From: Eledone cirrhosa
Lineage: Eukaryota
DNA length: 64,000 nucleotides
Assembly (NCBI GenBank): GCA_964016885.1
Contig: OZ024740.1
Coordinates: 52,514,001 to 52,578,000 of the forward strand
Direction: 5' to 3'
Below, piece after piece: positions 1,250 through 53,440 of this stretch; position 1 is the stretch's first letter; each line of letters opens with the position of its first letter. A model generated the notes under the pieces. That model was given only the letters and a program-made list of their open reading frames with translations. It had not been told where the DNA came from and searched no databases. The translations under genes were made by a program, and so were the position numbers.

Positions 1250-1436
1250 AATGTAATCTGAGTTTTTCGAATATTAATTATATCATTCGATTCGTTTGCA
1301 TTTCTGTTCACATGCCAACACAAGAGCAAGAATGAAGGGTTCATTCTACTCACATGGCTATAAAATTGAGGCTTGTTTGCATAATTACAAACGAATCGAA
1401 TGTTATAATTAATATTCGAAAAACTCAGATTACATT
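1250..1436. repeat. ~49-bp inverted repeat with ~90-bp spacer between (TA)n tracts (fold-back mini-insertion)
   Basis: aatgtaatctgagtttttcgaatattaatt...gtttg versus caaac...aattaatattcgaaaaactcagattacatt. Confidence 0.8.
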
Positions 1437-1882
1437 ATATATATATATATATATATATATATATATATATATATATATATATATATATATATATATATAT
1501 ATATATATATATATGGGATATAATTACGGTATGTGCGCATTTCTTCTAACTTTAATTTTACTACTAATTGTGTGTGGTTGATGGTATATTTGGTCGAAGT
1601 CTACATGGTGTCGAAATGTTCGATAAATAATGGAACGGGGCTGCCGCGAAGAGGCTACGGTCGATTGTTTGTCAGAGATTTCCCCATAAGAAAATGTATT
1701 CTTAAAGCTTGCTAGATTTGATTTTGTATATGGTTAATTGTGCTAATTAGAAGAAGAAATAGTATATATTTTAATATCTGATGATTCTAAAGACATGATT
1801 TATGATATATATATATATATATATATATATATATATATATATATATATATATATATATATATATATATATATATATATATAT

Positions 1883-1947
1883 ATATTAAAATAACAGATT
1901 AAAGTTTAAGCAAAGAATCGCTGCTTTCACCCTTAACGGGATCTTCT
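1883..1947 (-). mobile_element. ~65-bp terminal fragment of the pLTR of the 8431-12877 PLE family, embedded in (TA)n
   Basis: Matches the reverse complement of ~9546-9608 (tattaaaataacagattaaagtttaagcaaagaatcgctgctttcacccttaacgggatcttct). Confidence 0.9.
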
Positions 1948-1973
1948 ATATATATATATAAACGCGAGTTAAA

Positions 1974-2065
1974 ACATATCTGAGGAGCTTCCGATTCCAG
2001 AATCAGGTTCGATCATTAATAGATCGTTCATCGAGCTGATCGACATGGAAACATAGGTAATATGT
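1974..2065 (+). ncRNA. Type I hammerhead ribozyme with extended stem II
   Basis: ACATAT-CTGAGGA-[long hairpin]-GAAA-C(ATAG)G-TA-ATATGT; 6-bp stem I, GUA triplet. Confidence 0.65.
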
Positions 2066-2631
2066 AATTAAATATGTATATGATACAACACTGATTCTTT
2101 GTTCCCTTATATATATAAAGAGAGAGGGGGGGGGGAAAGACAGACAGACAAACAGATAGCTAGATAGATAATCATATGAGTGTATATGAAAGCATAAGGG
2201 ATATGTTTATGTATAATAAATATCCGAGAGTCTCATTATTTCAGTAGCGGGGAGAATGACTGACAGCTATTTTTGGATTTTAATCCGTCAACGGTGATAT
2301 TTACTCACTCGATACTGAGATAAAATAGGTTAAAGCCTATATCGATTTTTCATATGAAACATCGGTTGGATATGCTCACTTGCATATATTGTGAACATGA
2401 CTGATTAAATGGATGTAATTAGAAGGGGGACTAACATAAAGTGGTTCATCATAGTGATGCACATGAAAGCATATACGATATGTTTATGTATAATAAATAT
2501 ACGAGAGTCACTTAAAAGTTGCAAGAGGCTTTAGAGATATTTGTTTACATTTCTTGCAGGTTTTTCAAATGTTCCGGAATAAACAAGAAGGAAAATCATG
2601 CATCTAGTGTTGAGTTTATATTTATGGTACG

Positions 2632-2814
2632 CAGGCCTGCCAACCTTTAAAAACCCAAACGGGGAGTACCATGAATAAAAGTGACCCAAAACGGGGAGAA
2701 ATGAGACAAACTGGGGAGATTTTACACATTGAAAGCTATACCCATTTTCATCTCTCATCCACCCCAAAGTGGGTGGGAGATTTCCCCGTCGGACGGGGAG
2801 AGTTGACAAGTCTG
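2632..2814 (+). mobile_element. ~180-bp MITE, hAT-like imperfect TIRs
   Basis: CAGGCCTGCCAAC ... GTTGACAAGTCTG; second copy in opposite orientation at 40621-40817. Confidence 0.65.
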
Positions 2815-49556: not shown

Positions 49557-49719
49557 ATCTTATCTGTTTTATGCAGATAGGCTTGCCCGAGAGACGGGCT
49601 CCTACGCTTTGAGATTCGTAGATGTTGTCGGAGGGATATATGAGGAGGGATATATGAGGAGGGATATGTATGTATGTATGTATGTATGTATGTATGTATG
49701 TATGTATGTATGTATGTAT

Positions 49720-51360
49720 GTATGTTTTTAGTCCTGCGGGATGTCCAAAGTCACCCTCCTCACTAAGAAAACAAAACCTGTCAAAGGGCAAAGGAGCTCT
49801 TAAGAGTCAATGGCCATCCAAAATCACCGGGAGAGATGACCCCTTAGCCTTTGTCAAGGCAGAATTCTAGGAGAAGGAAAACTCTGATATTACACCTGCA
49901 ACCCTGATGGTATCCAATGATGTTGACTTGTTCTTCTTTTTGGTAAATATCATCTTGGTTAAGAGAGTGGGACTGGCTTTGTGCAGTGCCTTTGCTCACT
50001 ATAAAAGCTTCACGGCACAGGCATTGCTTTATATCTAGAGATCTCTCTGCACTTGTCGCCACATGGTACCATGGGCCCAGCACTATGTGTCAATAAGTGT
50101 CACAAGTGTAGTGTTTGTACCAGAGTTTTCAAGTCGCTGGCTGGACTAAAAAGTCACACTCGTTCAGCGCATCGGTAGGGGTTCTCCTACATGGATATAA
50201 AGTAGTGGCCGTACTCGAAAACGAGTTGGCAGCCACCATGTATGTATGTAAGTATACATACATACATACAAACATACATACATACATACATACATACATA
50301 CATACATACATACATACATACATGTATGTATGTATACATGGTGGCTGCCAACTCGTTTTCGAGTACGGCCACTACTTTATATCCATGTAGGAGAACTCCT
50401 ACCGATGCGCTGAACGAGTGTGACTTTTTAGTCCAGCCAGCGACTTGAAAACTCTGGTACTAACACTACACTTGTGACAATTATTGACACATAGTGCTGG
50501 GCCCATCTGACGACAAGTGCAGAGAGATCTCCAGATATAAAGCAATGCCTGTGCCATGAAGCTTTTATAGTGAGCAAAGGCACTGCACAAAGCCAGTCCC
50601 ACTCTCTTAACCAAGATGATATTTACCAAAAAGAAGAACAAGTCAACATCATTGGATACCATCAGAGTTGCAGGTGTTATATCAGAGTTTTCCTTCTCCT
50701 AGAATTCTGCCTTGACAAAGGCTAAGGGGTCATCTCTCCCGGAATACATACATACATACATACAAACATGCATACATACAAACATGCATGCATACATACA
50801 TGGTGGCTGCCAACTCGTTTTCGAGTACGGCCACTACTTTATATCCATGTAAGAGAACCCCTACCAATACGCTGAACGAGTGTGACGTTTTAGTCCAGCC
50901 AGCGACTTGAAAACTCTGGTACAAACACTACACTTGTGACAATTATTGACACATAGTGCTGGGCTCATGTTACCATATGACGACAAGTGTAGAGAGATCT
51001 CCAGATATAAAGCAATGCCTGTGCCGTGAAGCTTTTATAGTGAGCAAAGGCACTGCACAAAGCCAGTCCCACTCTCTTAACCAAGATGATATTTACCAAA
51101 AAGAAGAAAAAGTCAACATCATTGGATACCATCAGGGTTGCAGGTGTTATATCAGAGTTTTCCTTCTCCTAGAATTCTGCCTTGACAAAAGCTAAGGGGT
51201 CATCTCTCCTGGTGATTTTGGATGGCCATTGACTCTTAAGAGCTCCTTTGGCCTTTGACAGGTTTTTTTTTTGTATACATACATACATACATACATACAT
51301 ACATACATACATACATACATACATACATACATGGTGGCTGCCAACTCGTTTTCGAGTACG
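49720..51360. mobile_element. Four copies (+,-,-,- partial) of a ~500-bp non-autonomous RTE-derived element separated by (TATG)n/(TACA)n
   Basis: Shared cccttagcctttgtcaaggcagaattctaggagaagg segment and terminal C2H2-like [25 protein letters not shown]; each ends ..ggcagccaccatg(tatg)n. Confidence 0.85.
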
Positions 51361-51364
51361 ATAT

Positions 51365-52211
51365 ACATACTAGACCCAGAAGGTAAGTCGGTGGTGCTGG
51401 ACGTGACCGGCAGCGAAGGCAATGCTTTCAGGCTAGTAGCCGTCTACGTCCTAACAGGGGCAGGACGGCCAGATTTCTTCAGACGTCTAGAGACCTTTCT
51501 TGGAACGTCCCGCTCTTTAGTGTTAGTGGGCGACTGGAACGGTATCTTGGATGCACGCTGGAATCGTGTGGGGCTAGTGGATAGGGGAGGAGGGTGCAAG
51601 AGCCTCACCAACCTGCTCTGACGTTTTGAATTGTCTGACAGGTATCGACTGGATCACCCAAATGTGCCAATGTGGACATGGACAAACCGCATCGGGTCAT
51701 CCAGATCGTATCTCGATATGGTATTCTGCAGAGAACTAGATAAGGCTAGTATAAGCTGTCCACAATTTAAAATAGTCGACTACACAGACCACAAATTTGT
51801 GATCTGTGAGATCGACATAGACAGACTTCATAGACAAGGGCCTGGTTACTGGAAGCTGAACGCGTCTTTCCCGGCGCGCAAAGCCTACAGAGACCGGATT
51901 AGCGTATTAGTTAAGCGGGCGTTGACGGGAGCGATCGTCAGCAACAGGTGGTGGTTCGCCCTGAAAAGGGCAATTAAAGTAGAGTCGATTAGGTTTAGCA
52001 AAGGAGTAGTGATAGAGGAAAATAGAGTAGAGGGAGAGCTAGTCAGAAAGCTAGAAGAGGCGTATAGGACAGGCATCGCAACCGACGTGCTTGCGGAGAG
52101 ATTGGCACTCGACCAATTCTTCAACGCAAAACACGAAGGCTGCGTTGTCAGAGCTAGAGCGCGTGCTCTGAAACACGAGGGGACAAAAGCCGTCCAATGA
52201 GCAGTCCAATG
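51365..52211 (+). pseudogene. Tx1/L1-clade LINE APE endonuclease fragment
   Basis: LVAVY..., LVLVGDWN, WTW..SRSYLD, TDHKFV, GPGYWKLNAS; in-frame stop at ~51620. Confidence 0.9.
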
Positions 52212-53259
52212 ATATATATATATATATATATATATATATATATATATATATATATATATAAATACAATATCGGAGAAAGCTTTTTAGCGATACTCCGGTC
52301 AAATTCCAACTCACTCAACAAACATTAGGAAATAAGTGATTATATTCCCAATTATGCGTTCGGGGTGCTAACTAAAAGTATTGCGTGGAAAATTGGCTGT
52401 ATTATTTCATATGAGACATATCTAATATATCTCTTCCCAGACGGACGTCTCGTTTCATTATAGGATTCCTACAATTTGGGTGAAATTATACCAATTTATG
52501 TAGCTTGTATACCATCAATAGGTATATATTCAAGTGGGCTCCTATAATTCATCAGTCGGTGCCCCAATAATACTAATATTGATAATCCAACCAATATATA
52601 TATATAAATATGTATATATATATATATATATATATATGTATATAAATATGTATATATATATATATATATATATATATATATATATATATATATATATATA
52701 TGTATATATATATATATATATATGTGTATATATATATATATATATATATATATATATATATATATATGTATATATATATATATATATATATATATGTATG
52801 TATATATATATATATATATATATATATATATATATATATATATATGTATATATATATATATATGTATATATATATATATATATATATATATATATATATA
52901 TATATATATATATATATATATGAATATATATATATATATATATATATATGTATATATATATATATATATATATATATATATATATATATATATATATATA
53001 TATATATATATATATATATATATATATATATATATACATGTATATATATACATGTATACATATATATATACATATATATATATATATATATATATATATA
53101 TTTATATATATATATGTATATATCATTGGACGGCTCATTGGACGGCTTTTGTCCCCTCGTGTTTATATATATATATATATATATATATATATATATGTAT
53201 ACATATATATACATATATATATACATATATATATATATACATATATATATATATATATA

Positions 53260-53440
53260 CGTAGGTCCCGGGTTGAGTCGGGGATAACCACAGTAAGTAA
53301 GGTACTCAATACATGGCAGAGTAAATTTTTTTTATTTTATAGAAGGAGCTTCTACAGGACTAGTACTGTTTCATTCAGATGAAATCTTCAGGAAGCACAG
53401 CTGAATGAAACAGTACTAGTCCTGTAGAAGCTCCTTCTAT
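53260..53440 (-). mobile_element. Fold-back mini-element (arms 53339-53378 and 53401-53440) between (TA)n tracts
   Basis: 40-bp perfect inverted repeat; the left arm extends ~80 nt further. Confidence 0.85.
53348..53396 (-). ncRNA. Type I hammerhead ribozyme
   Basis: GCTTC-CTGAAGA-TTTC(ATCT)GAAT-GAA-ACAG(TACTAGTC)CTGT-A-GAAGC. Confidence 0.85.

Follow-up and report, generated by a model that had tools for sequence, protein, structure and literature searches.

Several traits of Penelope-like elements (PLEs), retroelements related to telomerase, are already in print, namely, inverted pseudo-long terminal repeats (pLTRs), a tail on one side, the targeting of TA repeats by the Hydra clade, two start sites, and two-strand extension (PMC11167929, PMC3846280, PMC8557442, PMC4209133, PMC2377424, PMC13282606, PMC9977147, PMC12910113, bioRxiv 10.64898/2026.07.22.740005; all papers are cited here for the passages available). 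The same set of papers reports pairs of hammerheads on opposite strands, 100–700 bp apart. The origin of the inverted pLTRs and one-sided tails of PLEs is called open in PMC8557442 and PMC11167929. In the present study, we analyzed 64,000 nucleotides (nt) of Eledone cirrhosa DNA (hereafter, the window), an AT-rich stretch crowded with TA runs, from an assembly of 3.0 Gb in 1,796 contigs. Eight sites in the window, E1 to E8, belong to families E, F, A, B, G, H, C, and D in that order, and all eight are insertions of endonuclease-bearing PLEs. Each family has two 3' end points, designated short and long, and the stretch separating them is designated the tail. This insertion class itself is known. 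The present results add a quantitative pairing rule in two clades, by which inverted arms nearly always join one short and one long end, and the mechanism proposed in a first-pass annotation of the window appears likely.

The tails of Hydra clade PLEs (Craig et al. 2021; PMC8557442) are 30–40 nt long, whereas those measured in the present study were 42–98 nt. The available passages of that paper give no count of end-class pairing and attribute the tail to resolution by the endonuclease. In Poseidon_Ac (Frangieh et al. 2024; PMC11167929), as proposed for our elements, two start sites of the reverse transcriptase (RT) bracket the tail, and both strands are cut and extended. A dimer is predicted for Poseidon_Ac, RNA with an uncleaved ribozyme is used, and the RNA 5' end sets the product length. 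However, Poseidon_Ac belongs to another clade, and the passages available do not connect its pair of sites with the opposite ends of a single inverted insertion, the word "inverted" occurring there once, for a blocking group. Moreover, its start sites are not homologous to the target, whereas in our families the element's own sequence continues past each end with 2–4 TA-like bases. The Penelope elements of Adineta vaga (Arkhipova et al. 2013; PMC3846280) resemble ours in the inverted pLTR, in an optional tail on one inverted pLTR, in duplications (8–10 bp), and in TATA and initiator-like motifs within the pLTR; they differ in their low copy number. The explanation offered for them, self-priming on an antisense template, is contradicted here by arm pairs that do not overlap.

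The inverted pairs in the window were located by masked BLAST; an unmasked inverted-repeat finder was swamped by TA runs. Each element was then locally aligned to its own reverse complement, from which the arms and tail were measured. All eight sites (8/8) showed the inverted pair with a one-sided unmatched tail that the first-pass annotation had described. It had put the tails at approximately 30–95 nt, and the measured lengths ran to 98 nt. We also examined 800 kb of the genome, taken as 80 pieces of 10 kb at even spacing (the unselected set). A terminal inverted repeat was present in 64 of 562 TA-bounded segments, 47 of which were asymmetric and 17 symmetric, while shuffled segment interiors yielded 0 of 564. 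Therefore, the pattern is not due to chance. The symmetric hits comprised nine pieces of asymmetric elements split at an internal TA, five unresolved cases, one simple repeat, one candidate short+short pair, and one unclassified 1.6-kb element (L173:2759–4360), which lies in TA, has symmetric inverted ends, and occurs once in the sample. The 47 asymmetric inserts in 0.8 Mb correspond to roughly 59 per Mb, some of the calls being doubtful. Such inserts could be mistaken for miniature inverted-repeat transposable elements (MITEs) by repeat pipelines, and hairpin RNA is likely to arise from them.

When mapped on the window references, the 3' ends were sharply bimodal in each of the eight families and mostly followed by TA. 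The first-pass annotation had staked its reading on end positions that are not random within families, and the two sharp peaks per family bear it out. An apparent third peak in family A was rejected as a BLAST alignment running into TA. In family D, the positions of the short end were scattered across a TA-like RNA sequence of about 20 nt. The short boundary also recurred within families, as previously noted: GTATAACAAT was found at three sites of family B (14061–14070, 28008–28017 in reverse, and 31793–31802 with one mismatch) and TTTTAATA at two sites of family A (12873 and 1887).

The selected set consisted of 120 loci recovered by genome searches with the end regions of families B, A, C, and D, and the pair count covered 195 loci and the window. 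Among 153 head-to-head pairs, 139 were long+short: 119 were classified as such at once, and 20 family D pairs, in which the short end is spread, were reclassed after inspection. Ten others joined a short end to a partial tail. The remaining four were set aside as one doubtful family B call, two cross-hits of the family G reference (short+short and mid+mid), and one internal junction between pLTR and open reading frame (ORF) in E3, which gave an apparent long+long pair. Taken by themselves, the unselected samples gave 37 pairs, of which 31 were long+short and 3 joined a short end to a partial tail; true same-class pairs among the reference families numbered 0 in these samples. Twenty lengthened loci (the extended set) yielded 12 family A long+short pairs, one of which overlaps the earlier count, and six single arms; the element at the left edge of the window (E0) had its predicted short end, about 650 nt to the left of the window, which brought the long+short pairs from extended loci to 13. 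The rule is common to Hydra-type and Neptune-like families. The arm carrying the ORF may have either end type, short in E3 and long in E5 and L209. Since independent choice of sites gives at most 50 percent mixed pairs, the two primings appear to be coupled. The pairing is near-strict, not absolute.

In self-priming or fold-back, the cDNA or an antisense template copies itself, and resolution by the endonuclease leaves a one-sided tail. Such a route has been put forward for palindromic PLE junctions (PMC3846280), and the attribution of the tail by Craig et al. (PMC8557442) agrees with it. It predicts both the asymmetry and the identity of arms within an insertion, and some junctions are perfect palindromes (window 1–406). 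However, fold-back requires nested arms, and both directions occur: in the 23 pairs of family A, the short arm extends further 5' in 18 and the long arm in 4. The long arm lies entirely within the tail in 5 of these 23 pairs, long and short arms do not overlap at 28010–28359, L204, L215, and L220, and the long arm stops inside the tail in 8 of the 15 short-read joints listed. Because the nesting runs in either direction and some arms never overlap, fold-back is not the general route, and the data speak against published self-priming in that role. We regard it as quite unlikely for the pairs described here, and it could account for the rare same-class palindromes. For 34 of 36 family C pairs, the two arms of an insertion were more alike than either was to arms from elsewhere, which indicates the same subfamily only and not one RNA versus two; the three pLTR copies of E3 gave mixed signals. 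Sequential priming of the two strands without a fixed dimer is an unlikely alternative of a different kind, in which the first synthesis exposes or blocks RNA and leaves the second strand only the other site, whether this lies on that RNA or on a second one. It covers the pairing, the many single arms, and the exceptions without a symmetric dimer. However, no fixed order is visible, since either end type may have the longer arm, and the 226 arms without a partner include 109 long and 87 short ends.

The small hairpins might instead be non-autonomous units that are copied whole, in the manner of MITEs or retrozymes, with the pairing simply inherited. Non-autonomous PLE derivatives exist (bioRxiv 10.64898/2026.07.22.740005), and some junction sequences recur among copies of families C and D, which were chosen by a query containing the junction. 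However, junctions vary from copy to copy at unselected loci, 72 different joints of a family C copy were present in one short-read run, the same pairing extends from inserts of 70 bp to those of 4.4 kb with ORFs, and duplications of 13–16 nt are unlike those of DNA transposons that duplicate TA. We consider inherited pairing very improbable. An origin of the windowed elements from DNA transposons of the MITE type was also rejected, since the tails are one-sided and the inner junctions variable, in contrast to symmetric terminal inverted repeats with a short fixed duplication. Artefacts in the form of near-perfect palindromes are known from TA-rich DNA, and no short-read contig spans the whole of E2, as chimeras of the assembly or of long reads would have it. 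However, the ends are fixed by family, the arms differ by 1–12 percent, target duplications are present, and the same ends and junctions recur in Illumina contigs and raw reads, which leaves chimeras hardly credible. For E2, short-read contigs and raw reads showed TA directly past both end points and several head-to-head joints. For the family C copy, 11 of the 15 listed joints lay at the 5' limit described below. One 352-nt contig was identical to the assembly over a short end, its TA13 run, and about 290 nt of the unique flank, although the sequencing run may derive from the assembly's own sample. The first-pass annotation had looked to long reads to expose artefacts. This check was made in part, by Illumina-based contigs and reads, which repeated the ends and junction types. 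Four runs gave no empty allele for L076, the flanks being covered in only one of them.

We consider it probable that the insertions arise by paired priming on two strands, one cDNA being started from the short RNA site and the other from the long site, into TA repeats. The first-pass annotation had suggested that both strands of a cut in (TA)n prime cDNA from two RNA positions, and the fixed ends, the pairing, and the non-nested arms support this suggestion. It was partly anticipated, being close to the in vitro demonstration of Frangieh et al. 2024 (PMC11167929). The steps may be envisioned as follows. Nicks staggered by about 13–16 nt in the Hydra families, with 3' overhangs that become the target duplication, are a reasonably likely beginning. 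One pair of proteins, quite likely a dimer, would then hold the RNA with one active site at each start, and the 2–4 TA-like RNA bases past each end may help the TA primer to land. Where the start sites used are those near the 5' end of the normal transcript, both cDNAs would run off and leave ORF-less hairpins of 100–250 bp; we slightly favor this step over its negation. Longer or full-length copies would require an RNA that reads through and includes a further copy of the sites downstream. Host end-joining would finally connect the two cDNA ends, and single arms may result where the second priming fails or leaves few bases. In L1 twin priming, the second target strand primes a second cDNA, which creates an inversion; the second site is variable and located upstream, and the pieces do not overlap. 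Our elements differ in that neither site varies and in that the two arms are usually copied from one and the same stretch of RNA. In the literature searched, we found no statement of near-strict long+short pairing, the non-overlap argument, a 13–16 nt stagger, a run-off wall, or twin priming in PLEs, although supplements and subscription papers (e.g., Arkhipova 2006) may hold them.

The ORF-less hairpin elements envisaged in the first-pass annotation do occur. However, they do not form a separate class and are mostly short products of families with ORF-bearing copies (A, C, and G). In these small hairpins, both arm classes stop at the same RNA position, which we term the 5' wall; the 5' ends of family H were left out, since its upstream reference contained a junction. 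The ends of 59 of the 64 unselected family C arms lay 38–64 nt upstream of the short end, and of the 37 arms that reached 55 nt upstream, 32 stopped by 64. Thirty of 33 family D arms ended within 31–60 nt. A TATA-like word is located about 26–30 nt upstream of the wall in families C and D, and an initiator-like word at the wall in family C and near the peak in family A. We read the wall as likely run-off where the transcript begins, a pause or a protein block being the alternative. The position of the wall relative to the hammerhead-like core differs between families C and D, and it does not coincide with the hammerhead cleavage site. In family B (e.g., L020), the 5' ends gather near an AAGATGG word, about 215–235 nt upstream of the short end. 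This word resembles a YY1 site, which marks starts in other retroelements.

In E2, E3, E6, E7, E8, and the pair at 35216–36163, a hairpin of the form RCTC..GAGY lies 3' of the short end at a distance of 6–19 nt, and in E5 the distance is about 5 nt. It also lies 6–7 nt 3' of the long end at five family A loci and one family C locus. This hairpin, 5–19 nt 3' of each end, may serve as the position signal in Hydra families. Regarding the target, an interrupted TA word was duplicated on both flanks in 9 of 51 candidates, whereas 300 shuffles gave 1.4 such cases on average and never more than 6. The clearest duplications were 15–16 nt (L033, L037, L078, and L139), and lengths overall were 13–16 nt in a few impure TA targets. 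Junctions between the arms of family A had an overlap or filler of -6 to +4 nt in 21 of 23 pairs. At the family C junctions of L071, L075, L078, and L090, the filler was often a short repeat of the last bases of the arm, as in templated end-joining.

A number of observations weigh against paired priming as set out above. About 15 of the pairs had more than 120 nt between the matched arms and are less certain. One true long+long insertion was found among the extended loci, a single event in two duplicated copies, L213 and L214; the duplicated stretch that contains it (G000:C1, copies about 227 kb apart) is at least 6.7 kb long and 98.8 percent identical. A near-perfect palindrome at L141:7927–8145 has the short site on both sides and is a candidate short+short pair. 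Of the 226 arms without a partner, 128 TA-ended ones were checked by script; only three had a short partner (10–13 nt, always of the opposite class), and 28 adjoin TA at their 5' end, so that paired priming is not obligatory. Frangieh et al. (PMC11167929) saw no strand difference in the use of start sites, a result that leaves pairing on a single molecule neither demonstrated nor excluded. Family A had no TATA match at the expected place, and the promoter of D. virilis Penelope is internal and TATA-less (PMC2377424). The RCTC..GAGY hairpin was absent from family B and had no match in E1. Forty-two of the 51 candidate flanks lacked a duplicated word, many of them not being truly informative, and the TA flanks of some family B copies were too short for a 15-nt duplication. 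The stagger may be shorter in family B.

In its strongest form, paired priming would be a built-in asymmetric double priming, with nicks made in both strands about 15 nt apart by a pair of proteins and one cDNA forced per RNA site, and its default product would be a promoter-bounded run-off micro-hairpin, of the order of 100,000 in the genome. We offer this form tentatively and judge it a little more apt to fail than to hold. If true, double priming would account for the tail, the inverted pLTR, and the full replication of partial-tandem copies only, in at least two PLE clades. The genome data also yield predictions for the existing in vitro system: mixed starts per target molecule, nicks offset by close to 15 nt, and run-off where the transcript begins.

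The assignment to PLEs is supported by the ORF motifs of E3, its YRDD relatives of approximately 700 amino acids (aa), and the anatomy of the pLTRs. The E3 pieces align end to end with YRDD proteins of 700–720 aa (29–44 percent), and E3 and loci L207–L209 have a partial tandem pLTR, an inverted 5'-truncated copy, and a one-sided tail. Weak GIY-YIG matches, below the Pfam cut-off, were obtained for two of five scanned E3 relatives. A Pfam scan of the ORF pieces in the window returned 0 families, the window copy being frameshifted, and comparison of the E3 RT piece with solved structures returned 0 matches. E3 carries a DKT motif and, near the N-terminus, RLCWRA, where its relatives have RMRW(K/R)A at the place of the RWK motif. 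E3 and E5 alike have a CxCx5C linker, no CCHH, and a late CxxC and CxH. These motifs are features of the Hydra clade (Craig et al. 2021; PMC8557442), and, judged by them and by insertion into (TA)n, E3 (family A) belongs to that clade. A Hydra-type ORF is present between both ends in copies of family C other than E7 (L136 and L178) and in family G, and family F has one adjacent case. Families D, E, and H are tied to Hydra only through end anatomy and the hairpin, for which E has no match, and their placement is tentative. In contrast, the endonuclease linked to family B (L005, L020, L128, and window 87–500) has a CX4CxxC linker, is of the CCHH type, and has two cysteines between GIY and YIG. 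On this endonuclease, family B appears Neptune-like; no RT portion was recovered for it. Family B lacks the Hydra hairpin, yet shows the same pairing. Naiad and Chlamys were rejected, since the endonuclease is C-terminal in E3 and, in families B and G, comes before the 3' end. A regular expression detected putative hammerhead core-like patterns in seven of the eight families, two of them as variant cores, while Rfam at its gathering threshold gave nothing in the window. Decayed Hydra-type ORF pieces, one of them inverted, lie on the minus strand at 15337–16052.

The individual elements in the window are as follows. E1 (1191..1435) has an inverted long arm on the left (tail 1191–1250, 60 nt) and a direct short arm ending at 1435; it is flanked by TA on both sides and lacks an ORF. 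The first-pass annotation had recognized the pair, and its bounds of 1250–1436 omitted the tail. E2 (8052..8385) consists of an inverted long arm (tail 8052–8149, 98 nt) with a hammerhead-like core and a direct short arm; the RCTC..GAGY hairpin is 9 nt inside the tail. E3 (8433..12873; tail 90 nt) has a 702-nt long arm on the minus strand (8433..9134), with its long-site end against TA, and a short-ended arm on the plus strand (9129..12873) that comprises a pLTR, the tail (9610–9699), the ORF, and a pLTR, with its short-site end against TA14. The ORF (9744..11874, plus strand) would encode a Hydra-clade RT with a GIY-YIG endonuclease at the C-terminus and is interrupted by two frameshifts, one near 9935 and one at the YRDD motif near 10790. 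E4 (13625..14070) has an inverted long arm (tail 13625–13682, 58 nt) and a direct short arm; 36 nt of other sequence separate its long end from the TA run, giving 94 unmatched nt in the self-alignment. An inward-facing 18-nt inverted repeat around a 44-nt TA run (13527–13606) lies beside this long end.

E5 (21340..25267) has an inverted short arm of about 1.15 kb, a direct long-ended arm, a tail of about 90 nt, and a Hydra-type endonuclease on the plus strand (22454–23476). A 13-nt word occurs on both of its flanks, but within a periodic array. On either side of E5 is a TA array (17353–21339, about 4 kb, and 25273–28009, about 2.7 kb) that is repeatedly interrupted by CAG or G, and the arrays contain more short inserts (18378–18913 and 26128–26254). 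In E6 (29981..30131), the short arm ends at TA13 and the long arm is cut within the tail by a 64-nt palindrome (29917–29980), leaving 42 nt, which is shorter than the tail of other family H copies. Therefore, the TA previously assigned to both sides of E6 is present on the short side, while the long side adjoins the palindrome. The region 29729–29980 contains an arm of another hammerhead-bearing family (matching 5393–5459), followed by this perfect palindrome. E7 (32318..32529) has an inverted short arm and a direct long arm, both ending near the 5' wall, with a tail of 88 nt including a 13-nt duplication. E8 (53260..53437) has an inverted long arm (tail 82 nt) with a hammerhead-like core and a direct short arm.

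Several related insertions in the window had not been listed in the first-pass annotation. A family B pair at 28010..28359 joins an inverted short arm to a 65-nt long arm between TA flanks; the arms hardly overlap, and no hairpin results. E0 (1..1112), a relative of family B, carries a fragment of a CCHH-type endonuclease (87–500) and a long-type end at 1112. A one-tailed hairpin is located at 32583..32742 (arms 32590–32682, tail 60 nt), and a one-tailed inverted pair at 35216..36163 has a tail of 46 nt that contains the RCTC..GAGY hairpin. Lone short-ended arms, with boundaries that the first-pass annotation did note, were found at 1887..1946 (family A, minus strand, TA on both flanks) and at 31637..31802 (family B, plus strand). 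Further inverted pairs at 32000–32106, 40822–40910, 58471–59418, and 52172–53163 were left unclassified. A dispersed repeat of 190 nt that resembles a short interspersed nuclear element is present in many copies (14488–14596, 16169–16970, 42253–42470, 45421–46391, 47835–48029, 58043–58230, and 60144–60353), and a minisatellite with 78 copies of a 34-bp unit and 95 percent matches occupies 54766–57427.

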